DNA of 64,000 bases from an uncultured Erythrobacter sp. (GCF_947492365.1 NZ_CANLMB010000001.1:1476874-1540873), one strand, 5' to 3'; counted from the first letter of the stretch, positions 7,490 to 33,322 are shown. Made by a program: numbers and translations. Notes: generated by a model not told the origin, from the letters alone.

Positions 7490-7631
7490 TGCCCCTCCAA
7501 TGCCCCCATGGCCCAGCCATAGCACCGCGCAACCTACAAAGCGGTTTTGCACTGGCTACGCAAGTCACAGGGCCTGCGAAATCCCCTAGGGGCAGTTGCC
7601 TAGATCAGCTGCGCGAGCGGTCCGGGAATTG

Positions 7632-10694: not shown

Positions 10695-10695
10695 C

Positions 10696-16600: not shown

Positions 16601-18891
16601 ATCGCGCTACCGTCGCCTGCACCGCCAGTGCCCCCGAAACCGTCGGAATATGCTCCAACATCTCCGCCGACCGTAATGCTGGCGCTGACATTGGCTGTCC
16701 CGTTAGCTTGTAGCGAGGAGTTGCCGCCTTCACCCAAGCCGCCATCGCCGCCAAATCCAATGCTAGCATTGCCGCCAAAGCCGGTAGAATCGATGTCTGC
16801 CAGTCCGGTGATGTCGAGAGTTCCGGAAACGACCTGAATACCTGCGATTCCGCCAAAGCCGCTACCGCCGCCAATTCCGTTACCGCCACGACCGGTAGCC
16901 GAACTGAAGAAATCGCCGCCGACCAGAAGGTTGCCGCCATTGGGAACAAAGCCGCGCGCGGCACCGCCCAAGCCGTCTCCGCCACGACCTCCGAAATTAT
17001 TGCCGCCAATGGCGCGGGCTTCGAGGATCAGGGCGTCCTCGATATCGATAGTCTCGCTGCCACCGATAAAGACTTCTGCACTACCTGAATCCGCAATTGC
17101 ACCATTGCCATTTGGATTGTTGGACGCGCCGGCAAATGCGAGCGAGTACAGCTCCGCAACGCCGTTAATGTCGATCGTTCCTCCGTCTAGAGCCTGGAGG
17201 ATCGCGGCCCCACCAAATACATTGACCCCGCTGGATATGCCCAAAGTGTCCATCGAAGCAGAACTAGCGCCAGCCGACAAAAGGATGCTGCCATTGGTCG
17301 TCAAAAGACCATTATTGTTTGCAAAAACCTGCGCTGTGCCACCCGTCACATCGCCGCCGCTTAGCAGATCGCCCGAACGTTCTTGCGCTGCATCTGCAGT
17401 GACAAAGGAATCGCCGTTGATCGTGAGTGTACCGCCCCCTGCTGCAATCGTTGCAATGCCGCCCGTCGCGGTGCCGGAAGCAAGGACGCCCAGGTCAGCA
17501 CCGGCAAATGCATCGGCAGTAACAACGACTGTGCCATTGATCGTCATCGTTCCGTCAAAGGCGTCGATAAAGGCATCCCCGCCCTGCGCATTGATCGCGT
17601 TGGGGTCGTTCAAAGACACGCCGGTCTCGCCAAAGTCGCGCGCCGAAACCAGCACGTCTCCGTTGATGGTGAAGTCGAAGCCGCCAGCCGAGGTTAGCTC
17701 GGCAAAATTGCGACCGACCATCAGCAGATTGCCGTCTATCGAGCTGTCGCCGATAAAGCTGCTGACCTGAACCTCTTCATTCGCGATAGCGAGCACACTG
17801 CTGGTCGATGTAAAGCCTTCGAGGAAAATGCTTCCGGGCGTGTTGGTGAGCTGGGTGTTGCCGTCGAATACTGCGTTGACACCATCACTAATCGACCCGC
17901 CATCAACGTCGCGCCCGCTTACTGCGTAATTGGCCGAAAGGATGATCTCGCCATTCACGATCCCAGCGCTCGCCGCCGGATCAAAGCCGAGATTACCACG
18001 GAAAATCATCGCGATAGGATCGTTCTGTGCTGCTGCAACCGCATAGATCATGTGGTTGTCGCCTGCGCCCGTGCTCGACGGACCCCCAATGTCCCCATCG
18101 AGGATTACTGGCGTTGTAGCGGACGTGCCGACCGGAATCTGGATGTCGAACAGACCGTTGCTGACAGTCACATTGACTTGCTCACCCGCGACATAGGCGT
18201 GACTGCCATTGATATCGGCCGTCCCGAACATCTGCACTTCGAGGCTGATGACCGCGAAATAGGAATTTTCGGCCGTGGCGGTGAACTGCGCGCCGGGCTG
18301 GATGATAATGTTCTGGCCTGCGGGGTCGATCGCGGTAAGCTGGAGCTGGCCTCCATTGAGCGCAAAATCATCAAAGCTGGCGAGATCCGGCTCGAGCGTT
18401 GTCAGAATCAAATTCCCGACATCGAACACCGCATTGTCGCCGACGAAAATCCCTGATGGAGAATAAAATGCGACCGTGCCGCCGCGACTAACCGCGCCGG
18501 TTCCAGGATCGACAAGCTGCGAAATCAGCGTCCCGTCGAAAACCGTCACACTGTCATTTGCAGAAGGAAGGACGATGTTCAGGACCGCAAAATCGGCGTT
18601 GTTGACGCCATTCTGGAACGTCACCGCATTGAATTGGGGCAAGAAATCGAGCGCATTGCCCGCGCCGTCCTCATCCGGAGTCCATTGGATCACCGCAGTG
18701 TCGGTCTGCACCACAATGGTCTCTGTGCCCGTGCCGGTGAATACCCGATTGGCTGAGCCTGACGTGACACTCTCGGTCGCCTGAATGGCCTGCGCGCTCG
18801 CCCGTTCGGGAGCCATTGCCAGTCCCGTTGCCATGGCGGCAGCGCCGCAACCAAGCAGCAGTTTGGCGCGGTTCCTGTTCAACTGAGCCAT
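10696..18891 (-). CDS. Giant (2,731 aa) glycine-rich two-partner-secretion exoprotein (TpsA; filamentous-haemagglutinin N-terminal domain protein)
   Basis: It has an extended signal peptide and a TPS domain: VLNIVLPSANDSVTVFDGTLIS...VAFYSPSGIFVGDNAVFDVGNLILTT, a variant of the NPNGI-type motif. About 2,000 aa of GGxGGxG-type beta-helix-like repeats follow. The C-terminus is non-repetitive, acidic and Pro-rich. Confidence 0.9.
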   Translation of the reverse strand: MAQLNRNRAKLLLGCGAAAMATGLAMAPERASAQAIQATESVTSGSANRVFTGTGTETIVVQTDTAVIQWTPDEDGAGNALDFLPQFNAVTFQNGVNNADFAVLNIVLPSANDSVTVFDGTLISQLVDPGTGAVSRGGTVAFYSPSGIFVGDNAVFDVGNLILTTLEPDLASFDDFALNGGQLQLTAIDPAGQNIIIQPGAQFTATAENSYFAVISLEVQMFGTADINGSHAYVAGEQVNVTVSNGLFDIQIPVGTSATTPVILDGDIGGPSSTGAGDNHMIYAVAAAQNDPIAMIFRGNLGFDPAASAGIVNGEIILSANYAVSGRDVDGGSISDGVNAVFDGNTQLTNTPGSIFLEGFTSTSSVLAIANEEVQVSSFIGDSSIDGNLLMVGRNFAELTSAGGFDFTINGDVLVSARDFGETGVSLNDPNAINAQGGDAFIDAFDGTMTINGTVVVTADAFAGADLGVLASGTATGGIATIAAGGGTLTINGDSFVTADAAQERSGDLLSGGDVTGGTAQVFANNNGLLTTNGSILLSAGASSASMDTLGISSGVNVFGGAAILQALDGGTIDINGVAELYSLAFAGASNNPNGNGAIADSGSAEVFIGGSETIDIEDALILEARAIGGNNFGGRGGDGLGGAARGFVPNGGNLLVGGDFFSSATGRGGNGIGGGSGFGGIAGIQVVSGTLDITGLADIDSTGFGGNASIGFGGDGGLGEGGNSSLQANGTANVSASITVGGDVGAYSDGFGGTGGAGDGSAIEAGRGGDAIGGQNVANQAASGFSSGTFLLSDRDNATYSVGGTVFASSNGVGGQGGAGGTDQDGGDGGDGSGGFVQVGHATLSGTTTIGDGNGTADFGDIDIFSDGVGGNGGAGNGTDAIAGNGGIGQGGGSFFSAIEGDVTAGNVDLSSEGAGGDGHVGGNGSGGLVSLLALDQGLMAIGGVLGSAAGNGGDGDLGGEGIGGQAMLTVTDAQVTVTNNLSLDAGAFGGNGAIDVGGAATGGLAEIVISGPNASVDVGGNVPLSAGVFAGFSSSASDGAVGTAGEAHLLIENGGSMTIGTDLFISTLAIGGGNGGSGAGGLANGGTSTIDIQANSTLIVGDEVEVEADGFGGDGQGGGDGLGGIASARVLDGTFSAGGNVLLRADGIGGTLLSLGAVGVGGAGDGGIAEISIEGSAGTFDAVVDVSLLARGTAGDSNSGADAASATGGSALVMIENTGTMSVGRDLFADTNATAGDNDGTGAGGVAIGGGSTIDVQGNSSLGVGRDLLIDAEGTGGDGTGGGDAFGGFAGIRVGAGQIDITGRARANAGGFGGDSIGIGGDGGTGHGGRATIVAAGTQTETGMIAIGGDAQTRANGRGGSGGDGDGANILAGRGGDGIGGDELDVNAFNDGEFNGASIIAGGDNGSLSVGGFALILTQGAGGVGGAGGAGQDGGDGGDGTGGSSTVGLTLIGTDGSVGAGVATFGDILLTADGTGGNGGLGGGTGTLRGDGGTGTSGLAAIFVDTGSLSGGNIRATANAIGGSGENGGEATNDARNRNSTFFKAVMDTVNGGTIQATGAQLISQGVGGNADGSAGGRAIGGAAFIDVTDGTIDIDGDVILDTSGFGGSSSGGDGGDGFGGRSDLSAFRSNISGDATVSGNAAVIANGVGGASGIGGSGGFGQGGLSTIEAHNGSTITLGSAQVTSSGQGGVGDAAGGDGFGGSTFVRSRDQGSQVRIQLNTPQAFSDALNRGAIISSNGFGGDTTGGSGIGGSALGGDIEINVSDGGDITLPPDPANDPNSQIGNGIQASAFGGGSSVDGGVGGTAQGGFVTISADNASIDLGQVIISSFANGGSSLNSNLDISGGDAIGGERLMNLTNGGDVEGEFIGGSSGANGGDGSGTGNGGNATAGGEFYDIIDSTLTTFGNSLFTTSSSGGDGGINGNGGNVTSGFIEWNVTNSVINILTNANGEAFIQIGEQVFGGNGVGSGGDASSSTADIQFSNSTISSLAYTSQPVGVDGTLTIFSEATGGDALGDSTTAGEGVSGGIQFGFSGGAADLFGVNSLRGSAQGGNGVGGTGGTATGGDVFATFVNSDLTILAANSSPGTMTLHSDATGGNGGESIGDSLAGSASFSGIGGTFAFDELLLTANAASGTTATGVSGGNAEAGSTFVEFSDTVNVDIFTVSLFSDAVSSIDGLTSGGTADVLIGSTDVVGAPQVNIDELNLSASGSGANDDSGVPNVSGEFSVVAQQGQLAVNDLNGFALGDRTASSSADGSSVRAIGGDILISGNMTIDVLDDFTVETSQGRIVGGPDQLDPTAIVDVQSQAIINILGDDDNHVGFGGAVLNLTSNDIVIANGARIGAPIVNLVSINADDPAVLGGVGTPDSDATGEGYSAIAEELQRIDVTDFTFTQDALPGAGSNDPDIIIRDTVIAGSLDDGVSSVTINATGSGGIIRVDGLVQWNDAAETDQLSLLAGGRIEVVTPGGLFVLNPNGDPGGNIFLGSDNIWIADSDLIALLQDDSLFSGRDDQLRVAASGSDDPLGFVRASGVSVEAGVSFLVRNTGTETAQGGILVGDGGLSIFAPDSATNAESGLDVFAYGARIDGQGNLITGEDFFGEVNFNNDGSSTSTFYSGTSEFNDCLINTGVCPDNGGSGGGPDPVTPEPENSEVSLPINNPNIIEDPITSVAPVPLTEAEADTEFGIDFPGLMVEPEDEEEGTIDDPVSSGGDSSLYGPGATGSVRVEGN
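14287..15255 (-). repeat. Internal protein-level repeat block 2 of the TpsA gene (aa ~1213-1535)
   Basis: Second copy of the 609-aa-offset duplication. It is immediately preceded by a further ~164-aa sub-repeat (AHLLIENGGSMTIG at aa 1049 versus ALVMIENTGTMSVG at aa 1213). DNA identity is only patchy, for example a shared ccgccatcgccgcc. Confidence 0.75.
16114..17082 (-). repeat. Internal protein-level repeat block 1 of the TpsA gene (aa ~604-926)
   Basis: Paralogous to aa ~1213-1535 at a constant offset of 609 aa. Anchor pairs: GSGFGGIAGIQVVSGTLDITG / GDAFGGFAGIRVGAGQIDITG, AGRGGDAIGG / AGRGGDGIGG, and GGTDQDGGDGGDGSGG / GGAGQDGGDGGDGTGG. Confidence 0.75.
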
Positions 18892-18892
18892 C

Positions 18893-20839
18893 TTAATATC
18901 TCCAAGGGAAAAGTCGGGCGGTCAAAGAGACCATGAAGCGCACATCACCGCGCGATTGCGCCAAGTCAGGGCGTTCGAGCGGGACGGCGACAAAAGCGTC
19001 ACCTTGCAGGCGTGACCCCCAGACGGCGCGCAGTCCGCCACCGGCAGACCAGAGCCTGTCCGGATTGAGCGGCTGGCGGCTGGGGTCTTCGTTCCATGCC
19101 CAGGCCATGTCGGTGAAGACATAGGGCTGCACCGCAAGGTCATCGGCAGCATTGGGAGCCAGCGATCCGTAGCGCAGTTCTAGCGCGGTGCTTACACCGC
19201 TATCGCCCAGAACTGCGCCGGGATCGTAACCGCGACCAATCGAAAAACTGCCAGCAGCAAATTCCTCATAAGCTGGCAAAGGATCGCCGCTGATCTGGCC
19301 GCTTGATGACAGTACAAAGGTGATTTTCGGAACGGGGCGATATTCTATCCCCGCATCATAGCGCAGCAAGAGCGGCGTCGGATCAGCCTCGATCCGGCTG
19401 GTCTGGTTGCCATCGAAAAAGCATTGCGCTGCATTGACGCGGCAATCGGGGCTGGCTGAAAGGACGTCAAAGCCCTGCCGCACTTCGAGAGCATAACGCG
19501 CGCGGAACTTCGGCTCGAACGGAGTGTATCCGCCAATGCGCTGGACGCTTTGCTGGTCGGTCATCTCGCCCGAGAAGCGCGCAAACAGTGTGCGCACTCG
19601 GTCGCGCGAGATCATCACATCGTTGATCTCGACATCCTGATTGACGACATCAAAGCCGACATCGAGAAACTTGCTCGAGCGGCGCGTGCGTTGCAGCGGG
19701 TAGGACGCGAAGCCAGTGAAGACAGTGGTTTCGGATTCAAGATCGAACCCCGCAACACCCAGCTGCGGGTTCGTCTCACTATAGGTGAACTGGCCGCCCA
19801 GCCGCAGCCCTTCCCCGCCAACGGCAAAGTCATGCCCGATCTGGAGCGTGCGTTGCTCGCTGAATTCAAGCGTACTGAAAAGCGCAACCGAAGTGCGGTC
19901 GCCTAGCCCCGTGACATCGTAAATTTCACCGCGCAGCAACCCGCCGAAACGGCCAATCGCTTTCGACCCGAAATTCTGGACATTGAGGTCGATCACCCCG
20001 CGCTTGCGCACCACCGCGATTTCGCCGAGCAGGTCGCCCGGCTCTCCGCCAGCCGCCGGTCGCAGCGACAGGCGCACATTGACGCCCGGCAGATCATCGG
20101 CGAGCAGCAGGTAGCGTTCGGCATCGCGGGTGTTGAACACGGGCTGCTCGGTCAGTTTTTCCAGATAGGCCGCAACCAGCCCCTCTGACGGCCCGGCTTC
20201 GCCGCGAACTCGCAAGCCCGTTAGCCGCCCGAAAACGACGCCAAAATCGGCAACGCCATCGCTCAGATTTTGCTCGGGGATTTCAACCGTGGCCAGATAA
20301 CCTTGTCCGCGCAGGATCGAATTGGCCCGCGCGCGGATGTCGCACAAAACCGCCAAAGGCACTTCGCGCCCAAGATAGCCGTCATATGCAGCTGCGAGCG
20401 AAAGCCCCGGCACCCGTTCCAGCCCGGCAAACTCGACGCCGCTCAGCGTCAGGCTGATCTCGGAATATTCGGCCCGGTCAAGCACGCATGGCGCGCGCTC
20501 CATATCGCCGTCGATCGTCAATGTGACGCTGCGATCCTCGCGGCGCTCCATTTCAGGCGGTGTGAGCTGGGTCCGTGGCGGCGGGGTGACCTGCGGAGCA
20601 GCCTGAGCGAAAGCCGCCCCTGTCGGCACAACCGCGGAGGCACCCAACACAAGGGCGCCCGCAGCAAATGCTGATCGTGCAACACTAGCACCGCGACGTC
20701 CGTGCTCAACACGGCGCAACTTAATAGAATTTGTAGACAAGCCTGCCCCCCAATTTCGTCTTGCAACCGCTCTTGCGCTTACAAGTCCCTGCCCGACCCG
20801 GAGAGATTCTCGAAAAAGGTGCAGCGTGGATTTTTCCAC
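18893..20839 (-). CDS. ShlB/FhaC/HecB-type outer-membrane TpsB transporter (POTRA domains plus beta-barrel)
   Basis: Signal peptide ...AAGALVLGASAVVPTGAAFAQA, then a POTRA-like region and a long beta-barrel ending in aromatic residues (RLFPWRY). The stop is 1 nt before the TpsA ATG. The start is uncertain: GTG at 20839 or TTG at 20719. The TTG would give a normal-length signal peptide. Confidence 0.85.
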   Translation of the reverse strand: MEKSTLHLFRESLRVGQGLVSARAVARRNWGAGLSTNSIKLRRVEHGRRGASVARSAFAAGALVLGASAVVPTGAAFAQAAPQVTPPPRTQLTPPEMERREDRSVTLTIDGDMERAPCVLDRAEYSEISLTLSGVEFAGLERVPGLSLAAAYDGYLGREVPLAVLCDIRARANSILRGQGYLATVEIPEQNLSDGVADFGVVFGRLTGLRVRGEAGPSEGLVAAYLEKLTEQPVFNTRDAERYLLLADDLPGVNVRLSLRPAAGGEPGDLLGEIAVVRKRGVIDLNVQNFGSKAIGRFGGLLRGEIYDVTGLGDRTSVALFSTLEFSEQRTLQIGHDFAVGGEGLRLGGQFTYSETNPQLGVAGFDLESETTVFTGFASYPLQRTRRSSKFLDVGFDVVNQDVEINDVMISRDRVRTLFARFSGEMTDQQSVQRIGGYTPFEPKFRARYALEVRQGFDVLSASPDCRVNAAQCFFDGNQTSRIEADPTPLLLRYDAGIEYRPVPKITFVLSSSGQISGDPLPAYEEFAAGSFSIGRGYDPGAVLGDSGVSTALELRYGSLAPNAADDLAVQPYVFTDMAWAWNEDPSRQPLNPDRLWSAGGGLRAVWGSRLQGDAFVAVPLERPDLAQSRGDVRFMVSLTARLFPWRY

Positions 20840-20964: not shown

Positions 20965-21200
20965 TTGGCGCGCAAGGCCCTCCGGAGAAGGTGCCCGTTA
21001 ACTCCATGCTAACGCTGTTCATGGGTTCGACTAGGGAAAAATTCATATTCTCCTGCTTGGCTCAAATTCAGGTCGCCGAAAACGCAGGAGTTAGCGTGCA
21101 GCACATCGCAGAAATCTCGCCAGTGCTTGGCGTGTTGGACCGGGTTCGCCCCCCAGCCTTCATATTTGGCAATCGCGATAAGTCGCGCTATGCCAAGCGA

Positions 21201-21545
21201 ATGTCGGGAAGTGCATTGAACTGGACTAGCGAGAATCGCGCCGGAGCTACTGTGCTTTGCCCGAGCGGCCGAGTTGATGAATCGACCGCAGATGCGTTCA
21301 AGGAAAACTTGCTCGACGCGATGGCAGCAAAGCCGGAAACGGCGATTATCGATCTTGATGGCGTCGAATATATGTCTTCACGCGGGCTGCGCGCGCTCAC
21401 CCTTGCGCAGCGCGCCGGGCAAGAGGCGGGGACCACGATTGTCCTAGCCCGCCCGAACGATACAATGCGCGAAATACTTGCAATCAGCCGTTATGATATG
21501 GTCTTTCGTGTTGCCGATACGATAGAGGATGCGATCGGGCATTAG
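21201..21545 (+). CDS. STAS-domain protein (anti-sigma-factor antagonist-like, SpoIIAA/RsbV type)
   Basis: Start taken at the ATG at 21201 (114 aa, a typical STAS size). It carries the motif IDLDGVEYMSSRGLRAL, which retains the conserved phosphorylatable Ser context. Confidence 0.8.
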   Translation: MSGSALNWTSENRAGATVLCPSGRVDESTADAFKENLLDAMAAKPETAIIDLDGVEYMSSRGLRALTLAQRAGQEAGTTIVLARPNDTMREILAISRYDMVFRVADTIEDAIGH

Positions 21546-21563
21546 TTTGCATTAGGGGGGAAT

Positions 21564-22529
21564 ATGCAGGTCCGGTTTTGGGGAACGCGCGGCTCGCTGC
21601 CGGTTGCGCCGCACGCCTCGACAATCACCGACAAGGTTGCAGACGCCCTGCTTCATGCCAATGGGAAGAGCTTTGCCGATAAGCAGGCAGCGCTAGATTT
21701 CGCGCGCGACGAGCTCGATTTTGCGGTTGGGCAAGGATATGGCGGCGCGACGAGCTGTGTCGAGATCGATGCGGGCAAAGGCGCTTTCGTTGTTTGCGAC
21801 ATGGGTTCGGGCCTGCGCGAATTCGGCCTCGATACGCTGCGGCGGCTGTCCGAAGGCTTGCGCCCCAAGGAATGGCACTTCTTCCTCTCGCACCTGCATT
21901 GGGACCACATCATGGGTTTCCCTTTCTTCGTGCCAGCTTTTGTTGATGGGGCGAAGGTGATCATCCATGCTGGACATAGCGACGCCGAAGAGGCTCTGCG
22001 CCGCCAGCAGGAAGAGATCAGCTTTCCGGTGCCGTTCCATTGGCTCAAGGCAGATATCGAGTTTCGCACTCTGGAAACGGGGCGTGACTACGAGATCGGC
22101 GAGCTGACCGTGGCCTTGATCGAGCAGGAGCATAGCCACAAAAGTTACGGCTATCGGTTCCGCGATGCCAAAGGGCGCACTGCAATCTATTCAACTGACG
22201 CCGAATACAAGATCGACAAGATGGACGAAGAGACCGCGATGATCGACTTCATTGCGGGTGCTGATCTGGTCATTGCCGACACGATGTATTCGCTCGCCGA
22301 TAGCGTTTCGATGAAGGAAGACTGGGGCCACTCGTCGAACATTGTCGCGGTTGATCTGTGTCACGAGGCTGGCGCGAAACGGCTGGCGCTGTTCCATCAC
22401 GAGCCGACCTATAGCGATGCCGATATCCAGCGGATGCACGGCGAAACGATCCGCTATGAAGAGCTGACCCGCAGCGCTGCCGCGCTCGAGGTGCTGTGCT
22501 CCTATGACGGGCTCTGTGTCGAAGTCTGA
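21564..22529 (+). CDS. MBL-fold metallo-hydrolase
   Basis: 321 aa with the HxHxDH motif in FLSHLHWDHIMGFPFF, plus later His/Asp ligand contexts (QEHSHKS, ADTMY, FHHEP). Substrate cannot be assigned from sequence. Confidence 0.8.
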   Translation: MQVRFWGTRGSLPVAPHASTITDKVADALLHANGKSFADKQAALDFARDELDFAVGQGYGGATSCVEIDAGKGAFVVCDMGSGLREFGLDTLRRLSEGLRPKEWHFFLSHLHWDHIMGFPFFVPAFVDGAKVIIHAGHSDAEEALRRQQEEISFPVPFHWLKADIEFRTLETGRDYEIGELTVALIEQEHSHKSYGYRFRDAKGRTAIYSTDAEYKIDKMDEETAMIDFIAGADLVIADTMYSLADSVSMKEDWGHSSNIVAVDLCHEAGAKRLALFHHEPTYSDADIQRMHGETIRYEELTRSAAALEVLCSYDGLCVEV

Positions 22530-22557
22530 GGACATCGCACAGGAGGCAGGCACGCGG

Positions 22558-24582
22558 ATGAAGCTTGTCCGCGCGGTTATCCTCGGCGGCATCGTCGGTG
22601 TGATGCTGGCATTTCTGCTCGGCACACAAAGCAGCCGCGCGGTGTTTGACAGCTGGCAGCGGCTTTCCCCGCGCGAAATTTCAACCGAGAATGTCGCTGT
22701 CATCCTGATCGATGATGACAGCGTGGTCGGGGTTGATGGGGCCGAAGGCAAGGTCGGCTGGCCGTGGCCGCGCAAGCTGGTCGCGCAACTGGTCGAGAAA
22801 ATCGGTGAGGCTGACCCGGCGCTGATCGGCATCGACATCTATTTTCCCGAACGCGACCCACTGCGCCCCGAAGCCTTTGCCAGCCTATACGCTGATGACG
22901 ATCTGGACGCAGCGAGCCGCGCCGCCATTCTCGATATGCGCGACTGGGATTACGAGCTTGCGCGGGTAATCGGCGAAACTCCCAGCGTTATGGCGCGCGC
23001 GGGGGTCGAATACGGGCTGAGCGATCAGCGCGACTATTTCTTCGAATCCCAGGTCCAGGGTGAAGCGCCCGCTGGCACATTGGCGCTCGACAATATCGTA
23101 GCCACATTGTTCGAACTTGAAGGTGCGGCGCTGTCACAGGCGATGGTCGATGGCGCGCCCGATGACGATGCGATTGTCCGGCGGGTCCCACTGAGCGTGC
23201 GCGTGGGCGACAAGCATCCGCCCGGCTTCGCGCTCGAACTCGCCCGGCTCGGCCTCGGCGTCGAGGAGTTGCGCTGGGAGGGGCAAAGCCTGTTCATGGA
23301 CCGGATCGAAATTCCTGCCGATGCGAATGGCACGATGCGATTCAAGATGGGAGAATTCCCCGCTGCCGCCGATCATTCCGCCGCCGATATCCTGTCCGGC
23401 AGGATCGGAGCCGAGGAATTGCAGGGAAAAATCGTCATTCTCGGTGTTGGCGCGACGGGCACCTATGACATTGTCGGCACCCCTTTGAATGAAGCAGTCT
23501 TTGGCGCATTCGTGCAGGCGCAGGCTGTCGACGCCATTATCGAAGGCGAATGGCTTGCCCGTCCTGCATGGGCAATCGGTTTCGAACTAGTCGCAGGTCT
23601 TTTGCTGTTCGCAATCGTTCTGATCGCGGCGATGACACAGCGCGCAAGGTTGCTGGCCCCGGCCATCGGCATCGCGCTCTTGCTTCCCCTAGTCTCCTGG
23701 GCGGCATTCGATCAGGCTAATCTGCTGCTCGATCCCTCACGCGCGCTCATCATCTGGGCATGTGCAGCCATAGGCCTGTGGATCATGCGTTTCCTCATCA
23801 CGCGCGAAGAGCTGGTGCAGGAGCACTTGCTGGTAACGCTGCATGAAGAGGAGATGGAGTTCGCGCGCCGCATACAGATGAGCATGGTTCCGGGCGAAAC
23901 CACTCTCGCCCGGCTCGATCAACGCGCCGAAATCGCCGGCGTGCTCGAACCGGCCAAGACTGTCGGCGGCGACTTTTTCGATGCGCTCAAGATCGGTGAC
24001 GACAAGCTGCTGTTTCTGGTTGGTGATGTGTCGGGCAAAGGCATGGCAGCGGCGCTCTATATGGCGCTTTCCAAGACTGCGGCGAAGAGCAATCTGGCGC
24101 GTGCAAGCGACGGGTTGCAGAATGCAGTGGCTGCGCTCAATCAGGATTTGATGGACGAAGCCGACCCCGAAATGGGTCTCACCATGCTGGTCGGCATTCT
24201 CGATTGCAGCACCGGCGATCTTGAACTGGTCAATGCAGGCCACGAAAACCCGCTGATTGTCCGCGCAGACCAGTCAGTCGAAACATTCGGGATGATCGGC
24301 GGACCGCCCTTTTGCGTGATCGACTTCAACTATCCGGTCGAGCACGACAAGCTCGAGCCCGGCGACACTCTGGTTATCATCACCGACGGCGCGACCGAGG
24401 CGGCCAATGTAGATGACAAGCTGTTCGGCGTTGAAGGGGTTGTCGGCGCGCTAAAAGCAGCAAACGACCGATCAGCCAAAGGCCGCGCGCAGCATCTGGC
24501 AAAGCAGGTTCGCGTGTTTGAAGGGCCAACCGACCCGAGCGACGATCTGACGATCTTCGCGCTCAGGTTCCTCGGCAGCTAG
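22558..24582 (+). CDS. CHASE2 sensor domain-containing PP2C/SpoIIE-family serine phosphatase
   Basis: Start at the ATG at 22558, downstream of AGGAGG. An N-terminal TM segment is followed by a CHASE2 core (VAVILIDDDSVVGVDGAEGKVGWPWPRKLVAQLVEKIGEADPALIGIDIYFPERDP) and TM helices. The SpoIIE motifs follow: GGDFFD, LVGDVSGKGMAAALYM, LVNAGHENP, ITDGATEA and DDLTIFALRF. Confidence 0.85.
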   Translation: MKLVRAVILGGIVGVMLAFLLGTQSSRAVFDSWQRLSPREISTENVAVILIDDDSVVGVDGAEGKVGWPWPRKLVAQLVEKIGEADPALIGIDIYFPERDPLRPEAFASLYADDDLDAASRAAILDMRDWDYELARVIGETPSVMARAGVEYGLSDQRDYFFESQVQGEAPAGTLALDNIVATLFELEGAALSQAMVDGAPDDDAIVRRVPLSVRVGDKHPPGFALELARLGLGVEELRWEGQSLFMDRIEIPADANGTMRFKMGEFPAAADHSAADILSGRIGAEELQGKIVILGVGATGTYDIVGTPLNEAVFGAFVQAQAVDAIIEGEWLARPAWAIGFELVAGLLLFAIVLIAAMTQRARLLAPAIGIALLLPLVSWAAFDQANLLLDPSRALIIWACAAIGLWIMRFLITREELVQEHLLVTLHEEEMEFARRIQMSMVPGETTLARLDQRAEIAGVLEPAKTVGGDFFDALKIGDDKLLFLVGDVSGKGMAAALYMALSKTAAKSNLARASDGLQNAVAALNQDLMDEADPEMGLTMLVGILDCSTGDLELVNAGHENPLIVRADQSVETFGMIGGPPFCVIDFNYPVEHDKLEPGDTLVIITDGATEAANVDDKLFGVEGVVGALKAANDRSAKGRAQHLAKQVRVFEGPTDPSDDLTIFALRFLGS

Positions 24583-24590
24583 CCCCCAGC

Positions 24591-25394
24591 CTAGCGGACA
24601 GTGACCGTCACAATCCGGTAGGCGTCATTGTCTTCGCGCACTCCGCCAGATGCTCTGAGCGCCGCAAAGTCACCGGCTCCGACCACTTCTATATCTTCGG
24701 CAGAAATCGGCAGATCGTCCCCCAGTTCGGCGAGCAATTGGTAATAGACCGAGGTCGCCCGGCGATAAGACAATTGCTGATTGCGGACCGAGTTTTCCGG
24801 ATCATCGTCAGTGAGATCGGTATAGCCCGCCGAATCCGCAAAGCCGGTGATCTCGATATGCAGTTCGGGCTTTTCCTGCTGGCTGGCGTAGCGATCGTTG
24901 AAGCGGATCAGATAGGCCTGCAAAAAGGCGCGAAGCTCGGCGAGAACAGCAGGCGAAAGCTCGCGTGCGCCAGTTTCAAACTCGAACCGGTCGATCGCCA
25001 CTTCGAGCGGGAGGTCCGCAAGCAGGCCCGCGCGGTCCGGTGTTTCATCGAGCGCGCGGACACGTGGACCCCTTTCACGCAGGGTCGCTTGCTCGTTCTG
25101 ACTGGTCAGAATTGCAGTCGAACTTACCGCAGTTTCGTCGCTGTAGCGTTCTTCGTAGTCTTCTTGCGAAAGCGCCGCGGCATCATCGTCAATTACAGCT
25201 ACGGCGCCCAGATCACAAACAGGCGTTTGCTCGCCTGTTTCAGCGTCAATGACGGGCACAATCTCACCCGAAGCCAGACCTTCACAGATAGCAAGCTTTT
25301 CCGCCTGGATCGGGTTCAGCAGCGTCACGCGGTCTCCCGCGGCACAGCCGGCCAATACTAGCGCGCCCCCCAGCGCCAGAGTTGTTCTGATCAT
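24591..25394 (-). CDS. Lipoprotein with C-terminal OmpA/MotB-like peptidoglycan-binding domain
   Basis: Lipobox LVLAGC. The C-terminus reads ITGFADSAGYTDLTDDDPENSVRNQQLSYRRATSVYYQL, which is OmpA_C-like. Its ATG overlaps the stop of the upstream FecR gene (ATGA at 25391-25394). Confidence 0.7.
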   Translation of the reverse strand: MIRTTLALGGALVLAGCAAGDRVTLLNPIQAEKLAICEGLASGEIVPVIDAETGEQTPVCDLGAVAVIDDDAAALSQEDYEERYSDETAVSSTAILTSQNEQATLRERGPRVRALDETPDRAGLLADLPLEVAIDRFEFETGARELSPAVLAELRAFLQAYLIRFNDRYASQQEKPELHIEITGFADSAGYTDLTDDDPENSVRNQQLSYRRATSVYYQLLAELGDDLPISAEDIEVVGAGDFAALRASGGVREDNDAYRIVTVTVR

Positions 25395-25837
25395 CCGACT
25401 TCAACCACAAAGGTCGTGCCGCGAACGCCCAGCGTCGATGTAGGCGTGCGCACGCGCATCCGGTCGCGCCCGGTCCGAGTGATGTTACCGGAATCAATGC
25501 CAACCGTTCCGCGCCGGATAAAGGTGGTTGAACGGCCCGTCTGGCGCGCCCTGTCATAGCGATATTCGTCGAGCGTGACTTCGCTATTGGGTCCGATCGC
25601 CATGCGGGTGTTGTCGATAAAGGTGATCCCGACCCGGCCTGCACGGCGGGTGACGATTACGTCATCCTCGACCAGTCGCATGCCCGATACGGCGCGATAT
25701 GTGCGGCCATCGCGCGTTACCTCGACCCCGGAAGTCACATTCTTGACCCGGCCAATTTCTTCGCCTGCCGATTGCGCAGCAGCAGGTTGCACGACTAAGG
25801 CGGCAATCGCTGCGATAAGAAAGCTTACTTTTCTCAT
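25391..25837 (-). CDS. Secreted FecR-domain protein
   Basis: Signal peptide MRKVSFLIAAIAALVVQPAAAQ. FecR core: GRVKNVTSGVEVTRDGRTYRAVSGMRLVEDDVIVTRRAGRVGITFIDNTRMAIGPNSEVTLDEY. A GGGGGAG Shine-Dalgarno sequence lies upstream. Confidence 0.8.
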   Translation of the reverse strand: MRKVSFLIAAIAALVVQPAAAQSAGEEIGRVKNVTSGVEVTRDGRTYRAVSGMRLVEDDVIVTRRAGRVGITFIDNTRMAIGPNSEVTLDEYRYDRARQTGRSTTFIRRGTVGIDSGNITRTGRDRMRVRTPTSTLGVRGTTFVVEVG

Positions 25838-25874
25838 ATGTTCTCCCCCAAGGAGTTTGTGTTAGCATATACTT

Positions 25875-26288
25875 ATGGATCGACGGAGACGATTTTCGGC
25901 ATTTGTTGCCAGCGGGCGCGATCCGCGTTCCACGATCCTTCAAGCATTGCAGTTCGCGCGAGAATTTCTGCCCGAAAGCTGCCTTGACGAGCGCGCCCGA
26001 GTCAAGGCTGCAATCATCATAGAAGAGCTAGTATCCAATTCTTTACGTTATGGCGGGCAGGCGAATGACCTGTCCTTGTGGCTCTCGCTCGATGATACGG
26101 GTGACGCGGTGGTGCTCGAACTCGAAGATGATGGCGCGCCGTTTGATCCCACTTGCGAGGATAGTTTCGCCGGTCCGAATCCGGAAACGGGCGGCGGCAT
26201 AGGCCTCGCTATCGTGCGAGCATGGGGAGAAGATCTGACCTATGCCCGCCGGTCGGATCGCAACTGCCTGCAATTGACTATTCGCTGA
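25875..26288 (+). CDS. HATPase_c-type anti-sigma-factor-like serine kinase (RsbW/SpoIIAB type)
   Basis: 137 aa. N-box EELVSNSLRYG, G1-like LEDDGAPFD and G2-like GGGIGLAIV. The size and motifs fit partner-switching kinases. Confidence 0.75.
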   Translation: MDRRRRFSAFVASGRDPRSTILQALQFAREFLPESCLDERARVKAAIIIEELVSNSLRYGGQANDLSLWLSLDDTGDAVVLELEDDGAPFDPTCEDSFAGPNPETGGGIGLAIVRAWGEDLTYARRSDRNCLQLTIR

Positions 26289-27228
26289 TCCCGCTAAGGA
26301 ACGCGAGCACTTCGCGCGCATAATCCTCGGGCACGTCCTCCAGCAGAAAATGCGAGCCGCCTTTCAGGATGACTGGTTCGTAGTCTCGCGTGCCGGGGAT
26401 GATCGGACGGACACTGTGATACCCGCGCGGCGCAACCTGATCCTTATCCGAATAGAGCGTCAGGAAGGGCTTTTCGAAGTCCATCAGCTTTTGCAGCTTG
26501 TGCCAGTTTTCGACCAGCATCGGATTGTCATTGCGAGTGGGCAGCAGCTGGGTGAACTGCCGGTTGCCGGTCAAATAGCTCTTGTCCGGATAGGGCGCAG
26601 CGAAGCCTGCGACGTCTTCTGCGGGCATATCCGTGATCGTCAGTCGGCGCAGCGTCTTCCAATGCTGCCAGTTCTTGCGCAGACGGATGTAGAGCTGGAA
26701 GCGGCGGAGCATCCCTGCTCCCTTGCGCGCCATCTTCGTGATCGGCTTGTCAGGATCGAGCACGGGAAAGCCTGTGTTCGACATGATGATGCTGGCGGTG
26801 CGGTCCTGATAATCCGCAATCGCGCGAAGACCGATAATCCCGCCCCAATCGTGCAGGATGAAATGCGCGCCCTTTAGGTCGAGCTTGTCGAACAGCGCCT
26901 CTTTCACCCAAGCCTCATGCCGGGCAATCGTATAGTCGCTCATCTGCGAGGGTTTGTCCGACCGGCCCATACCAATGAGGTCGATGGCGATGGCGCGGTA
27001 GCCTGCTTCAGCCAGAACAGGGATCAGCTTGCGCCACATATAGGACCAGGTCGGATTGCCGTGGATCATCACGACGGGTTGCCCATCGCGCGGGCCTTCA
27101 TCGACATAGGCCATGCGCAAAGTGCCGCCTTCCATGTCCGACACATCGACATAATGCGCGGCGAATGGAAAGTCGGCGAGGTTGTCAAAACACGCGTCGG
27201 GTGTGCGTAAGGCCTTCATTGCATCCAA
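26278..27228 (-). CDS. Haloalkane dehalogenase-type alpha/beta hydrolase
   Basis: LRTPDACFDNLADFPFAAHYV, HGNPTWSYMWRK and the nucleophile elbow HDWGG. The start may be the ATG at 27219. Confidence 0.85.
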   Translation of the reverse strand: MDAMKALRTPDACFDNLADFPFAAHYVDVSDMEGGTLRMAYVDEGPRDGQPVVMIHGNPTWSYMWRKLIPVLAEAGYRAIAIDLIGMGRSDKPSQMSDYTIARHEAWVKEALFDKLDLKGAHFILHDWGGIIGLRAIADYQDRTASIIMSNTGFPVLDPDKPITKMARKGAGMLRRFQLYIRLRKNWQHWKTLRRLTITDMPAEDVAGFAAPYPDKSYLTGNRQFTQLLPTRNDNPMLVENWHKLQKLMDFEKPFLTLYSDKDQVAPRGYHSVRPIIPGTRDYEPVILKGGSHFLLEDVPEDYAREVLAFLSGISE

Positions 27229-27307
27229 CGGTTAATCAACAGGCAGGTTGATTGCAATTGCCTTTCGGCATTTGCCATGCCATTTCTTCGGCTTTGGAGG
27301 GATTGCT

Positions 27308-28378
27308 GTGTTTAAGAAGATTCTGTTGGGACTGGCCGGGCTGCTCGCATTGGGGCTCGCAGCCATATTCGCATTCCAGAAACCCATCGGCGGATGGCTG
27401 TTTGAACGCGCGGTCCAGCAGAATGTCAGTCTCGACAGCATCGCCGGATTGGAAGACGGATTGCATATTGGCTTGTGCGGCACCGGCTCCCCCATGGCGA
27501 ACCCCGACCGCGCTGGCCCGTGCAATATCGTGGTTGCGGGCGATCAGGTGTTCGTTGTCGATATCGGCGAAGGCGGCGGGCGCAACCTCAGCCTTATGGG
27601 CGTCAATGCGGGCAATCTCGACGCGGTGTTCCTCACCCACTTCCACTCCGACCATATCGACGGAATGGGACCGTTGATGCTCAATCACTGGGTGCGCGGT
27701 AGCAACACCGCTCCCCTCCCCGTCTATGGGCCCGTCGGGGTGCAAGCCATCGTGGACGGCTTCAACGCCGCCTATGCCACCGACAACACCTATCGCACCG
27801 CGCATCACGGCGAAGCTGTCGCGCCGTCAAGCGGCGGCGGGGCCGAAGCGCGCGCCTTTGAAATGGAGGGCGAGAGCGCGGTTGTGTTCGAGCGCGCCGG
27901 GCTGCGCGTCACCGCCTTCACAGTCCCGCATGATCCCGTCGATCCGGCGGTGGGTTACCGGTTCGACTATCAGGGCCGCTCGATCTGCATCAGCGGCGAT
28001 ACGATGAAATCCGCCAATCTGGAGCGCACCTGCGAAGGTGTCGATCTGCTGGTTCACGAAGCGCTGCAAATGGAGATGGTCACGCAGTTGCAGGACGCGC
28101 TGACCGCAAACGGTGCGGAAAACACCGCGAAGATCATGTTCGACATCAGGGACTACCACGCTTCCCCGCAAGACGCCGCAGAAAGCGCGCAGATCGCCGG
28201 GGCCAAGATGCTGGTGCTCAGCCACCTCGTCCCGCCATTGCCCAGCGCCTACCTTTACCCCGCGTTCCTCGGCGATGCGCCCGATCACTTTGACGGCGAC
28301 CTGATCGTGGGCGAAGACGGGATGTTCTTCAGTCTGCCAGCCGGCGGCGAGGCCATCGAACAGACCCGGCTCATGTGA
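27308..28378 (+). CDS. MBL-fold metallo-hydrolase (RNase Z/arylsulfatase-like subgroup), membrane-anchored or secreted
   Basis: Start chosen at GTG 27308, 7 nt after GGAGG. The N-terminus is hydrophobic (FKKILLGLAGLLALGLAAIFAF). It has the HxHxDH motif THFHSDHIDG. Confidence 0.75.
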   Translation: MFKKILLGLAGLLALGLAAIFAFQKPIGGWLFERAVQQNVSLDSIAGLEDGLHIGLCGTGSPMANPDRAGPCNIVVAGDQVFVVDIGEGGGRNLSLMGVNAGNLDAVFLTHFHSDHIDGMGPLMLNHWVRGSNTAPLPVYGPVGVQAIVDGFNAAYATDNTYRTAHHGEAVAPSSGGGAEARAFEMEGESAVVFERAGLRVTAFTVPHDPVDPAVGYRFDYQGRSICISGDTMKSANLERTCEGVDLLVHEALQMEMVTQLQDALTANGAENTAKIMFDIRDYHASPQDAAESAQIAGAKMLVLSHLVPPLPSAYLYPAFLGDAPDHFDGDLIVGEDGMFFSLPAGGEAIEQTRLM

Positions 28379-29382: not shown

Positions 29383-29861
29383 AGCATGTCCTAGACCGGC
29401 TGTTCCCCGCGAGCTTCGACAATGTCTATCGCGGCAACCGGATCGCGCTTTGGCTATTCTACCCCCTCACCGCGATCACGCTTTGGCGCAGCCAGCACCA
29501 TATCTTTGCCCCCGATGGCGGCGCGCAGAGCATCGCGACGATCCCGCTGGACACCTACACCGAAGGCGGGGCGCAGGGTATCATCACGATCTTTGCTCTG
29601 TGGGGTCTGGCGCAGCTCGCCATGGGCATTGTGATGCTGCTCGCGCTCATCCGCTACAAGTCGATGGTGCCGCTGCTGTGGCTGCTAATCCTACTTGAAT
29701 ATGGCGGGCGCAAGCTCGTCGGCATCTACAAGCCGCTCGAGACAGTCGGGACAGCGCCCGGGGCGACGGCGGCGACTGTTTTGCCGATTGTTGCGCTGGT
29801 GATGCTGGTGCTGGCGCTCTGGCCAGAAAAGGACGCGGGCGACCGGACGCCACACGGCTAA
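29379..29861 (+). CDS. Small integral membrane protein, unknown function
   Basis: ATGA overlap with the upstream stop (29379-29382). It has four hydrophobic segments. Confidence 0.5.
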   Translation: MKHVLDRLFPASFDNVYRGNRIALWLFYPLTAITLWRSQHHIFAPDGGAQSIATIPLDTYTEGGAQGIITIFALWGLAQLAMGIVMLLALIRYKSMVPLLWLLILLEYGGRKLVGIYKPLETVGTAPGATAATVLPIVALVMLVLALWPEKDAGDRTPHG

Positions 29862-30781
29862 TTCGAAGGGGGGCCACGGCGCGTGTCGACCAGCCGGAAA
29901 CCGATATGGTCAGTGCCCAGGTCGCGCTCCTGAAACTGGCGAGCGGCGGGGCGATATCGGGCGCAATAATTGGCGGCGCACAAGAATGATCCGCCTTTGA
30001 TCACACCGACGCTGGCCATCGCGTCTGACCGCGCCGCGCTGGTGCTGGTCCATTCCCAGACATTGCCGATCATGTCGTGCAGACCAAAGGCGTTGGGTTC
30101 AAAGCACCCGACCGGCGCACGCGAAGTGTAGCCGTCTTCGCCCAGATCCCTCGCCGGAAAGACGCCCTGATAATAGTTCGCCTGCGGATTGCCCGCCGCG
30201 TCTAAGGGTTCCGGAAGGCTCTCCGATCCGGCCCGCGCGGCGTATTCCCATTGCGCTTCGCTCGGCAGGCTCATGCCCGCCCATTCAGCATAAGCGAGCG
30301 CATCATCATAAGTGACTTGCACGACCGGGTCATTCGCGCGGCCCTCGATCGAAGTGTCCGGACCATTGGGCGCGCGCCACTGGGCTCCGACAGTCCAGCT
30401 CCACCAGTTCGGGTTGTCTGGTGTCGGCGCGCGGAATGTCGCCGATCCGGGTTGCAGCATCTCAGGCGGCGCGCCGGGAATAGCGGGCGGCGCGCGTTCT
30501 GCAGTGGTCACATAGCCGGTCGCTTCGACAAAATCGGCAAACTCAGCATTGGTGACTTCGGTGCGCGACATCCAGAAGCCCGCGATTTCGACCTCGCGGG
30601 CGGGAGCTTCCTCGGGATAAAGCGAGGCCTCGCCCATCACAAAGCTGCCGCCTTCGACCCACACCATTGCGGCATCAGGCAGCCCCTGACACGATCCTTC
30701 ATTCGCTTGCGCAGCGACCTCATCACCGGCGTCGGAGCAACCAGCCAATAACAGCGCCGCGAGGATCGCCGGGCGAAGCAT
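29858..30781 (-). CDS. Formylglycine-generating enzyme family protein (sulfatase-modifying factor), lipoprotein
   Basis: Lipobox LLAGC. FGE motifs: GGSFVMGE, RTEVTNAEFADFVEATGY, HDMIGNVWEWTS and GGSFLC. Confidence 0.85.
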   Translation of the reverse strand: MLRPAILAALLLAGCSDAGDEVAAQANEGSCQGLPDAAMVWVEGGSFVMGEASLYPEEAPAREVEIAGFWMSRTEVTNAEFADFVEATGYVTTAERAPPAIPGAPPEMLQPGSATFRAPTPDNPNWWSWTVGAQWRAPNGPDTSIEGRANDPVVQVTYDDALAYAEWAGMSLPSEAQWEYAARAGSESLPEPLDAAGNPQANYYQGVFPARDLGEDGYTSRAPVGCFEPNAFGLHDMIGNVWEWTSTSAARSDAMASVGVIKGGSFLCAANYCARYRPAARQFQERDLGTDHIGFRLVDTRRGPPSN

Positions 30782-30783
30782 GG

Positions 30784-31407: not shown

Positions 31408-31441
31408 GCGTCCCTCTGGATAGGTTTGTTTCCTGTATCGC

Positions 31442-33320: not shown

Positions 33321-33322
33321 TC

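Follow-up and report, generated by a model that had tools for sequence, protein, structure and literature searches.

Partner-switching modules such as RsbU/RsbV/RsbW-sigmaB and SpoIIE/SpoIIAA/SpoIIAB-sigmaF of Bacillus are built from a single-domain STAS protein that is phosphorylated on a serine, a HATPase_c_2 kinase and a phosphatase of the SpoIIE/PPM type. The same three kinds of protein are encoded in a 64,000-nucleotide stretch of DNA from an uncultured Erythrobacter sp. (the window, hereafter), where they are part of a six-gene cassette. The cassette differs from the Bacillus modules in that no sigma factor gene is found in it or directly beside it in 40 loci, and in that the phosphatase is a membrane receptor with a predicted periplasmic CHASE2 domain. 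In addition, a metallo-beta-lactamase (MBL)-fold hydrolase is an obligatory member, and the kinase gene appears to be transcribed separately, divergently from the genes of the sensor accessories. We propose, with a probability of roughly 55%, that the cassette is a self-contained envelope-to-cytoplasm system in which a STAS phospho-switch controls an MBL phosphodiesterase and not a sigma factor or transcription.

STAS-type switches that act on an enzyme have been described. The SiaABCD system of Pseudomonas aeruginosa (PMC8457831, cited in PMC9239204) resembles the cassette in its membrane-anchored PP2C phosphatase, small serine kinase and small phosphoprotein. The unphosphorylated phosphoprotein binds and regulates an enzyme of the same cluster, and the output is independent of a sigma factor (PMC8457831). 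That enzyme is a GGDEF diguanylate cyclase, whereas the proposed output of the cassette is an MBL-fold phosphodiesterase and its sensor is CHASE2 with FecR-domain and OmpA-like proteins. The cassette contains no GGDEF protein, and its PP2C protein scores 31.9 bits against the SiaA model, for which the cut-off is 700. In the HenR/All4160 system of Anabaena PCC 7120, the target of a PP2C phosphatase and of HATPase-type kinases is a STAS domain fused to a glycosyltransferase, which it controls directly (PMC13555669). All4160 is like the STAS-MBL homologues described below in being a STAS-enzyme fusion, but in the window STAS and enzyme are separate genes 18 nt apart, and the sensing input is different.

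Periplasmic CHASE2 domains and exported FecR-domain proteins also occur together elsewhere. A CHASE2 histidine kinase of Burkholderia ("BiofilmReg") is co-encoded with a LysM-FecR protein (PMC5192318), and in Campylobacterota a CHASE2 cyclase is clustered with a phosphodiesterase, a FecR-domain protein and a TPR protein (PMC9239204). In these clusters the transmitter is a histidine kinase or a cyclase, whereas in the cassette it is a PP2C domain that would feed a STAS/kinase switch; one of them shares a phosphodiesterase with the cassette as well. CHASE2 is a widespread receptor domain of bacteria, and the factors that it recognises are reported as not known (PMC5192318). In open-access papers and bioRxiv, we found no published account of the cassette and no link of CHASE2 to partner switching or to a SpoIIE phosphatase; a STAS domain together with a metallo-beta-lactamase was found there for Acinetobacter resistance modules only. 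Enzyme-directed STAS switches are already known from SiaABCD and HenR/All4160, and what is new here is the CHASE2-PP2C/FecR/OmpA input together with a probable STAS-regulated MBL output.

A six-gene cassette conserved across bacterial phyla

The phospho-switch set of the window consists of six genes and not of three. They encode the STAS protein, the MBL-fold hydrolase, the CHASE2-PP2C phosphatase, an OmpA-like lipoprotein, a FecR-domain protein and the kinase, and are arranged as follows.

21166 to 21200, plus strand: putative promoter of the STAS-MBL-PP2C operon, from the sequence and an alignment of close relatives
21201 to 21545, plus strand: single-domain STAS protein, 114 residues (PF01740, TIGR00377)
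21564 to 22529, plus strand: cytoplasmic MBL-fold metallo-hydrolase, 321 residues (PF12706, 1.1e-15)
22504 to 24582, plus strand: sensor phosphatase with CHASE2, transmembrane segments and SpoIIE/PP2C, 692 residues (PF05226, PF07228)
24591 to 25394, minus strand: OmpA-like (peptidoglycan-binding) lipoprotein, 267 residues (PF00691, 4.5e-06; lipobox LAGC)
25391 to 25837, minus strand: exported FecR-domain protein, 148 residues (PF04773, 1.1e-10; signal peptide)
25838 to 25874: divergent intergenic region, 37 bp, from the sequence
25875 to 26288, plus strand: serine kinase of the RsbW/SpoIIAB type, 137 residues (HATPase_c_2, PF13581, 5.9e-12)
5390 to 7552, minus strand: CHASE2 class III nucleotide cyclase with transmembrane segments, 720 residues (PF05226, 1.8e-24; PF00211, 1.4e-15), associated with the cassette but not part of its core

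The MBL gene begins 18 nt after the STAS gene, in the same reading frame but unfused, and overlaps the PP2C gene by 26 nt. On the opposite strand the FecR-domain gene and the OmpA-like gene overlap by 4 nt, and the kinase gene starts 37 bp from the start (25837) of the divergent FecR-domain gene. A sequence-only reading of this DNA had identified the STAS protein, the CHASE2-PP2C phosphatase and the 137-residue kinase; all three are encoded where it placed them, and their catalytic and phospho-acceptor motifs are all intact.

One genome per GTDB species was scanned with an alignment of the MBL protein, and six-frame open reading frames (ORFs) were annotated with our own profiles. A locus was counted when a CHASE2-PP2C gene directly follows the MBL gene. 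This gave 40 cassette loci, comprising the window, four loci from Erythrobacteraceae and Novosphingobium, and the loci from the scan; 34 of them have enough flanking sequence. The order and orientation STAS(+), MBL(+), CHASE2-PP2C(+), FecR(-), kinase(+) are exactly those of the window in 29 of the 34 well-flanked loci, and in one more (L011) the kinase gene is relocated between STAS and MBL, so that 30 of 34 have these components. An OmpA-like match was obtained for the ORF between PP2C and FecR in 20 of 22 cassette loci checked. The minus-strand FecR-domain gene is at the same place in 36 of the 40 loci, and the contigs of the remaining four end earlier.

In Erythrobacter longus, two other Erythrobacteraceae genomes and Novosphingobium tardum all six genes recur with order and orientation unchanged, each time between entirely different flanks. 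The hosts belong to the Alpha-, Beta- and Gammaproteobacteria, Rokubacteria, Acidobacteria, Dormibacterota and Binatota, and include Sphingomonadales and other Alphaproteobacteria, Burkholderiales (Duganella flavida, Rugamonas), Lysobacter, Usitatibacter, Casimicrobiaceae, "delta" metagenome-assembled genomes (MAGs), Sulfotelmatobacter and Binatus. Because the genes stay together in 30 of 34 well-flanked loci over several phyla, 29 of them with identical order and orientation, the gene set is not a product of chance. No additional gene is conserved beside the cassette across the loci, the flanks being unrelated, and correlations of r 0.55-0.86 link the pairwise distance matrices of the components. 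From the shared order, the unrelated flanks and the correlated matrices, the cassette is inherited as a unit and has probably also been transferred as one.

The conservation also changes the view of the kinase, which the sequence-only reading described as standing alone on the plus strand, 37 bp from the FecR gene. Its position is as described, but it is not alone: the cassette is conserved, and the divergent placement beside the FecR gene is itself conserved, which makes the kinase an integral member. It occupies the same position and orientation in 29 of the 34 well-flanked loci. The ATP-binding boxes expected of a partner-switching kinase of the RsbW/SpoIIAB type are intact, with the N-box (E51, N55) and the G2 box/GGxG motif conserved. 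As a single sequence the kinase gave an uninformative comparison with the PDB and an orthologue profile was needed; the best solved relatives matched by the profile are RsbW (6m36, 6.6e-18) and SpoIIAB (approximately 5e-13).

The STAS ORF opens at 20991, and with M71 at 21201 as the start the protein has 114 residues. It matches PF01740 (3.9e-15) and TIGR00377, "anti-sigma factor antagonist" (2.3e-18), and its best solved relative is RsfB, an anti-sigma-F antagonist (8ih8, 2e-9). Ser60, within YMSSRGLR, aligns with the phospho-acceptors Ser58 of SpoIIAA and Ser56 of RsbV. The phospho-acceptor serine is kept in 45 of 45 STAS sequences with a Y[IMV]SSxGLR-type motif. The protein is thus a single-domain STAS with a phosphorylatable serine at the SpoIIAA-Ser58 position, as in partner-switching modules.

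The phosphatase, which is 100% identical to a protein of an uncultured Erythrobacter sp., contains CHASE2 at residues 33-372 (PF05226, 5.8e-43) and a SpoIIE domain (PF07228, 3.7e-39). Transmembrane segments are predicted at residues 21-39, 357-375, 383-401 and 407-425, giving a predicted topology of one transmembrane segment, a periplasmic CHASE2, three transmembrane segments and a cytoplasmic SpoIIE/PP2C domain. This is the layout of a CHASE2 receptor, in which CHASE2 lies between an N-terminal transmembrane segment and a transmembrane bundle that is followed by a cytoplasmic transmitter. The PP2C motifs GDVSGKG and TDG are intact and align with the PP2C domain of Rv1364c (1.4e-17) and with SpoIIE, so the metal-binding Asp motifs of a partner-switching PPM/SpoIIE phosphatase are present.

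The two minus-strand genes are most plausibly those of co-sensors of CHASE2 and not chance neighbours. We read the FecR-domain protein and the OmpA-like lipoprotein as part of the sensor because exported FecR-domain proteins cluster with CHASE2 receptors of other output types. The FecR-domain protein consists of a signal peptide and a FecR domain only. An anti-sigma role of the FecI/FecR kind was considered for it and rejected, as it lacks the N-terminal anti-sigma domain, the transmembrane segment and the extracytoplasmic function (ECF) sigma partner that accompany a periplasmic FecR domain in that system. For comparison, a true DUF4880-FecR protein paired with an ECF sigma factor is present elsewhere in L003.

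Both plus-strand transcription units have candidate promoters. Upstream of STAS, a -35 element TTGGCA (21166-21171) is followed by a 17-nt spacer, a -10 element TATGCC (21189-21194), 6 nt and the ATG, and the block TTGGCA...GCTATGC...ATG is kept in L001-L003, loci of three other Erythrobacteraceae. The candidate for the kinase is an extended -10 element, with TG at 25860-25861, TAGCAT at 25863-25868, 6 nt and the ATG at 25875. It lies in the 37-bp divergent region, in which TGTGTTAGCATA is kept in L001-L003 and which also holds, on the minus strand, the FecR Shine-Dalgarno sequence GGGGAG. No Shine-Dalgarno sequence occurs at a usable distance before the ATG of the kinase or of STAS. The -10-like hexamer 6 nt before each ATG suggests that both plus-strand transcription units of the cassette are leaderless. 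A consensus promoter and terminator scan gave nothing above the shuffled expectation, and the proposed promoters rest on the alignment of close relatives.

The MBL-fold hydrolase and its link to STAS

The MBL-fold hydrolase is the most conserved gene of the cassette by two identity comparisons. Compared with close relatives it shows 82-85% identity, where STAS reaches 74%, the kinase 53% and the receptor 46-54%, and in 26 cassettes outside the Erythrobacteraceae and Novosphingobium loci its median identity is 47.7% against 31-39% for the other components. The metal ligands H110, H112, D114, H115, H190, D212, H256 and H278 are invariant in 40 diverse members, giving the HxHxDH motif and the downstream His, Asp and His ligands of an MBL-fold phosphodiesterase. 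No signal peptide was found in the protein.

An AlphaFold2 model of the hydrolase (predicted local distance difference test 81.6, predicted template modelling score (pTM) 0.79) was searched with Foldseek. The closest matches were RNase Z (3.5e-14), a PhnP-family diphosphatase, YhfI, ElaC and PhnP, and further down came yeast PDE1, Apyc1 and a cAMP-bound MBL protein, with TM-scores of 0.5-0.76 and identities of 13-22%. Sequence models score below their thresholds, at 63 bits against a cut-off of 293 for RNase Z and at 55 bits against 400 for the cyclic-nucleotide phosphodiesterase family NF041851, so the protein is assigned to neither named family. As judged from sequence and model, it is a phosphodiesterase-type enzyme of the RNase Z/PhnP/YhfI/class II phosphodiesterase fold group that is placed outside every characterised family, because the fold group is shared and the sequence models stay sub-threshold.

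One explanation names the substrate, as a special case of the model we prefer. The CHASE2 cyclase would make cAMP or cGMP, and the CHASE2-PP2C/STAS arm would switch on the MBL protein as the matching phosphodiesterase, so that the level of a second messenger is set by two envelope receptors in a push-pull manner. In E. longus and L003 the genes of the CHASE2 cyclase and of STAS are immediate neighbours (13.6 kb apart in the window), cyclases occur near L012 and L065, and a REC-HD_5 protein is encoded near L018. The hydrolase also has weak matches to NF041851 (7.6e-15) and to Apyc1, its more distant fold neighbours include PDE1, Apyc1 and the cAMP-bound MBL protein, and the Campylobacterota cluster (PMC9239204) combines a CHASE2 cyclase with a phosphodiesterase. 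However, RNase Z, PhnP and YhfI match the hydrolase equally well or better, the score against the cyclic-nucleotide model is far below its cut-off, and there is no cyclase within 8 kb in most cassette loci. The hints of a second messenger are local and weak, and we regard this version as unlikely. The cyclase pathway, one of three targets suggested by the sequence-only reading, is therefore disfavoured, since the cyclase is near few cassette loci only.

Fusions of the hydrolase to STAS emerged from an exhaustive HMMER search of 1.84 billion cluster representatives (50%-identity clusters), which gave 497 relatives of the MBL protein at E < 1e-30. Among the best 150 of these 497 representatives, 48 carry STAS on the same chain, as 7 STAS-MBL, 5 MBL-STAS and 36 MBL-STAS-Pkinase proteins, the last usually with AAA_16 and TPR. 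A separate search added approximately 75 STAS-MBL fusion clusters, and their Ser-Ser site is invariant. In L032, L037, L085 and L089 a STAS-MBL fusion replaces the separate genes in otherwise complete CHASE2-PP2C/OmpA/FecR cassettes. L016 seemed on a first look to have both in one reading frame, but a later check put STAS in a separate frame and it is not counted as a fusion. In L086 and L087 the STAS-MBL fusion is an orphan, with the phosphatase and kinase absent nearby, and in L051, which encodes a LysM-FecR protein, MBL, STAS, kinase and HAMP-SpoIIE, a non-CHASE2 phosphatase accompanies the retained MBL, STAS and kinase.

Coevolution points in the same direction. With the phylogenetic signal common to all components removed, the mirror-tree partial correlation between STAS and MBL is 0.37, the highest of any inter-protein pair, compared with 0.57 for the positive control, CHASE2 and PP2C of the same chain; this result is supportive only, because the method is weak and gives approximately 0 for STAS and the kinase. 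Rosetta-stone fusions and synteny, together with the conservation, the Hanks-kinase fusions and the partial correlation, argue that the STAS protein and the MBL enzyme would work as a functional pair.

The proteins of the MBL-STAS-Hanks kinase-AAA_16 (STAND)-TPR family are 700-1650 residues long and make up approximately 36 of the 150 best representatives, including P0262 and P0271. Chloroflexota loci L048, L052 and L075 encode such proteins. In the MBL-STAS-Hanks kinase proteins, the STAS phospho-site is Thr in many cases and Ile, Val or Met in others.

In MBL-STAS-Pkinase proteins the Hanks kinase takes the place of the RsbW-type kinase, which suggests that the role of the kinase is to phosphorylate STAS only. 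More broadly, STAS and MBL may form a widespread effector pair that has gone unrecognised, a phosphodiesterase set by STAS phosphorylation to which differing inputs are attached. These inputs would be CHASE2-PP2C/FecR/OmpA/RsbW-type kinase in Proteobacteria, Rokubacteria and Acidobacteria, HAMP-PP2C, and the fused Hanks kinase-STAND-TPR of the three Chloroflexota loci. We hold this generalisation tentatively, at a little short of even odds.

The hydrolase could alternatively be an accessory of the phosphatase input. In the energy-stress branch of Bacillus subtilis, the alpha/beta hydrolase RsbQ serves the PP2C phosphatase RsbP, and its gene lies directly upstream of, and is co-transcribed with, the PP2C gene. 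By analogy, the MBL protein would make or destroy a small molecule that gates PP2C, and the STAS output would be elsewhere or be the kinase itself. The linkage of the MBL and PP2C genes is tight enough to make such a role possible: the MBL gene is always directly upstream of the PP2C gene, the 26-nt overlap of the window recurs in L002 and L004, and one representative, P0387, joins MBL to CHASE2. However, P0387 is only a fragment, and the joining of overlapping genes during gene calling could account for it. The cassette hydrolase is of the MBL fold and in homologues is fused to STAS and not to a phosphatase, as the 48 fusions among the best 150 representatives show, and both the orphan STAS-MBL fusions and the MBL-STAS-Pkinase proteins occur without PP2C nearby. 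An accessory role is on this evidence quite improbable, and we continue with the hydrolase as the enzyme that STAS would control.

Target of the phospho-switch

A conventional partner switch would have a sigma factor as its target. In the window, Pfam searches of all large ORFs revealed no sigma factor, and phmmer searches with RpoE, SigB and SigF gave 0 matches among 551 six-frame ORFs, in agreement with the sequence-only reading, which had noted that no sigma factor gene is present in this DNA. The 40 cassette loci were screened with jackhmmer (four seeds, five iterations) over 8 kb on either side. Only four ECF-type ORFs were found, at -4.3, -6.4, -4.1 and +7.8 kb, in differing places and orientations, and no sigma factor of the SigB/SigF/FliA type was detected. 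In 0 of the 40 loci is a sigma gene directly beside the cassette, so the cognate sigma gene of a partner-switching module is missing from its neighbourhood. The picture drawn earlier from the sequence, of a phospho-switch made up of STAS, PP2C and an RsbW-type kinase that takes its input from an extracytoplasmic CHASE2 domain and has no sigma factor associated with it, is therefore supported by the motifs, the predicted topology and the sigma screens.

A cognate sigma factor could still be encoded at a distance. The kinase would then be its anti-sigma factor, dephosphorylated STAS would free the sigma factor, and the MBL hydrolase would be a bystander or a member of the regulon. Indeed, the nearest matches of the kinase profile are RsbW and SpoIIAB, which are true anti-sigma kinases, those of the STAS protein are anti-sigma antagonists, and the host genome was read over 64 kb only. 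On the other hand, no sigma gene adjoins the cassette in any of the 40 loci, whose phyla differ widely in their sigma repertoires and which have the four scattered ECF genes only; the invariant MBL gene and the STAS-MBL fusions would be left unexplained; and the Hanks kinase of the MBL-STAS-Pkinase proteins fits pure phosphorylation and not sigma sequestration. Since no sigma gene directly adjoins the cassette in any of the loci, a remote sigma factor, for which the search in the host covered the 64-kb window, is distinctly unlikely as the target.

The sequence-only reading had left the target as simply unknown, with a distant sigma factor, the neighbouring MBL hydrolase and the cyclase pathway as candidates. 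The evidence now favours the hydrolase, which is always adjacent, lies between STAS and PP2C, is the most conserved component and is repeatedly fused to STAS.

Several observations weigh against control of the hydrolase by a kinase-driven STAS switch. The kinase is out of reach in six cassettes (L007, L010, L016, L037, L085 and L089). In L007, L010, L016 and L037 the candidate kinase ORFs were rejected as Arg/Ala-rich junk frames, and these four loci are therefore taken to have no kinase within 8 kb. Of the five cassettes with STAS-MBL fused or in the same frame, only L032 has the kinase; the other four, L085, L089, L016 and L037, lack it, L016 being included on its same-frame first look although its fusion status is uncertain. 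The fused cassettes without a kinase retain the Ser-Ser site and PP2C, and the unfused kinase-less cassettes are L007 and L010. The near-zero partial correlation between STAS and the kinase, the tight linkage of MBL to PP2C and the 64-kb limit of the host sequence belong to the same side of the balance. An AlphaFold2 model of a natural STAS-MBL fusion, P0416 (52 fusion homologues), reached a pTM of 0.64 and had a disordered linker, so it gives no confident docking of STAS on MBL and speaks neither for nor against a fixed interface. Finally, 37 more distant MBL homologues (<=41% identity; spirochaetes, Verrucomicrobia and others) have no STAS within 8 kb, from which it follows that the MBL family is not obligatorily linked to STAS. 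Even at relaxed thresholds, these distant stand-alone homologues revealed no STAS and no conserved neighbour, and they offered no hint of the substrate.

The only recurrent context among the distant MBL homologues is a synteny block in Treponema and other spirochaete MAGs (L066, L070, L076 and L080), in which a STAS-less MBL homologue is followed approximately 3.8 kb downstream by a primary-type sigma factor of about 600 residues. This MBL-sigma block is unrelated to the cassette.

The binding and catalytic steps of the model we favour are proposals built on the observed domains, motifs, cassette conservation and STAS-MBL fusions. The exported FecR-domain protein and the peptidoglycan-anchored OmpA-like lipoprotein would act with the periplasmic CHASE2 domain on an envelope or extracellular cue, and the cue sensed through CHASE2 would set the activity of the cytoplasmic PP2C domain. 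Judging from the intact motifs, PP2C would remove the phosphate on STAS Ser60 and the 137-residue RsbW-type kinase would add it. The fusions and synteny suggest that the MBL-fold phosphodiesterase, whose gene starts 18 nt after that of STAS, may have STAS as its regulatory subunit, and by analogy with SiaC and All4160 unphosphorylated STAS would bind the enzyme and change its activity. The output would be hydrolysis of a cytoplasmic phosphodiester, for which a nucleotide, a cyclic nucleotide or an RNA end are candidates. If the kinase sequesters STAS or the enzyme, the system would be a true partner switch; otherwise it would be a simple phospho-switch.

Neighbouring genes and significance of the cassette

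Between the CHASE2 cyclase gene and the STAS gene lies a 13-kb block on the minus strand (7632-20839) that encodes a TPR-CHAT protein of 1054 residues, a Gly-rich protein of 2731 residues and a TpsB transporter of the ShlB/POTRA type. The N terminus of the Gly-rich protein has a sub-threshold match to the two-partner secretion (TPS) domain (2.1e-7; 31.6 bits against a cut-off of 33.5). This genome alone has the CHAT/TpsA/TpsB block. In E. longus and L003 the block is missing and the cyclase gene abuts STAS, so it looks like a two-partner secretion system with a CHAT protease that has been inserted among CHASE2 signalling genes. As listed, the CHAT ORF shares 101 nt (10696-10796) with the end of the giant ORF, and an internal Met is followed by KSLLTLGALAAVGTAAFWAS, which resembles a signal peptide. 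Because of this stretch, the CHAT-TPR protein may start later and be exported.

A 254-residue ORF without a Pfam family (4654-5418, minus strand) overlaps the end of the CHASE2 cyclase gene. An ORF of 248-253 residues is found at the matching place in E. longus and L003, which makes a conserved partnership with the cyclase probable.

Downstream of the cassette, a haloalkane-dehalogenase-like alpha/beta hydrolase gene (26278-27228) overlaps the kinase stop by 11 nt, and a second, unrelated MBL-fold protein of 376 residues with a hydrophobic N terminus is encoded 1 kb away (27248-28378, plus strand). Neither is conserved beside the cassette elsewhere. Further on are a sulfatase cluster (29858-34987) with a formylglycine-generating enzyme (FGE-sulfatase), a TetR regulator, a DSBA-like protein and a sulfatase, and then a long run of genes for one-carbon and osmolyte catabolism on the minus strand (35208-63545). 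The run encodes FdhD, an NAD-linked formate dehydrogenase-like complex, sarcosine oxidase subunits, a DAO oxidoreductase, an M19 dipeptidase, an aldehyde dehydrogenase, a BCCT transporter, a formate-tetrahydrofolate ligase, a TPR-sulfotransferase and a TonB receptor. Scans of the window for Rfam families and tRNAs gave no matches, and PADLOC gave no defence-system match for any cassette protein; the cyclase alone had a generic PycC-type match.

The compact cassette is present in cultivable isolates (Erythrobacter longus, Novosphingobium tardum, Duganella flavida and Rugamonas) and so offers a tractable CHASE2 system with a biochemical read-out, for which the STAS-MBL and MBL-STAS-kinase fusions are handles for structural and enzymatic work. 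Should a cyclic nucleotide prove to be the substrate, the Erythrobacter-type locus would form a circuit of synthesis and degradation with two receptors. If the proposed control of the MBL-fold phosphodiesterase is correct, the enzyme would join a diguanylate cyclase and a glycosyltransferase as a non-sigma target of STAS phospho-switches, and partner-switching-like signalling would have a new class of output. It would also account for the many "anti-sigma factor antagonist" and "anti-sigma kinase" annotations in genomes and loci from which a matching sigma factor is absent, and would provide the first defined downstream pathway of a CHASE2 receptor besides those of cyclases, histidine kinases and GGDEF proteins.

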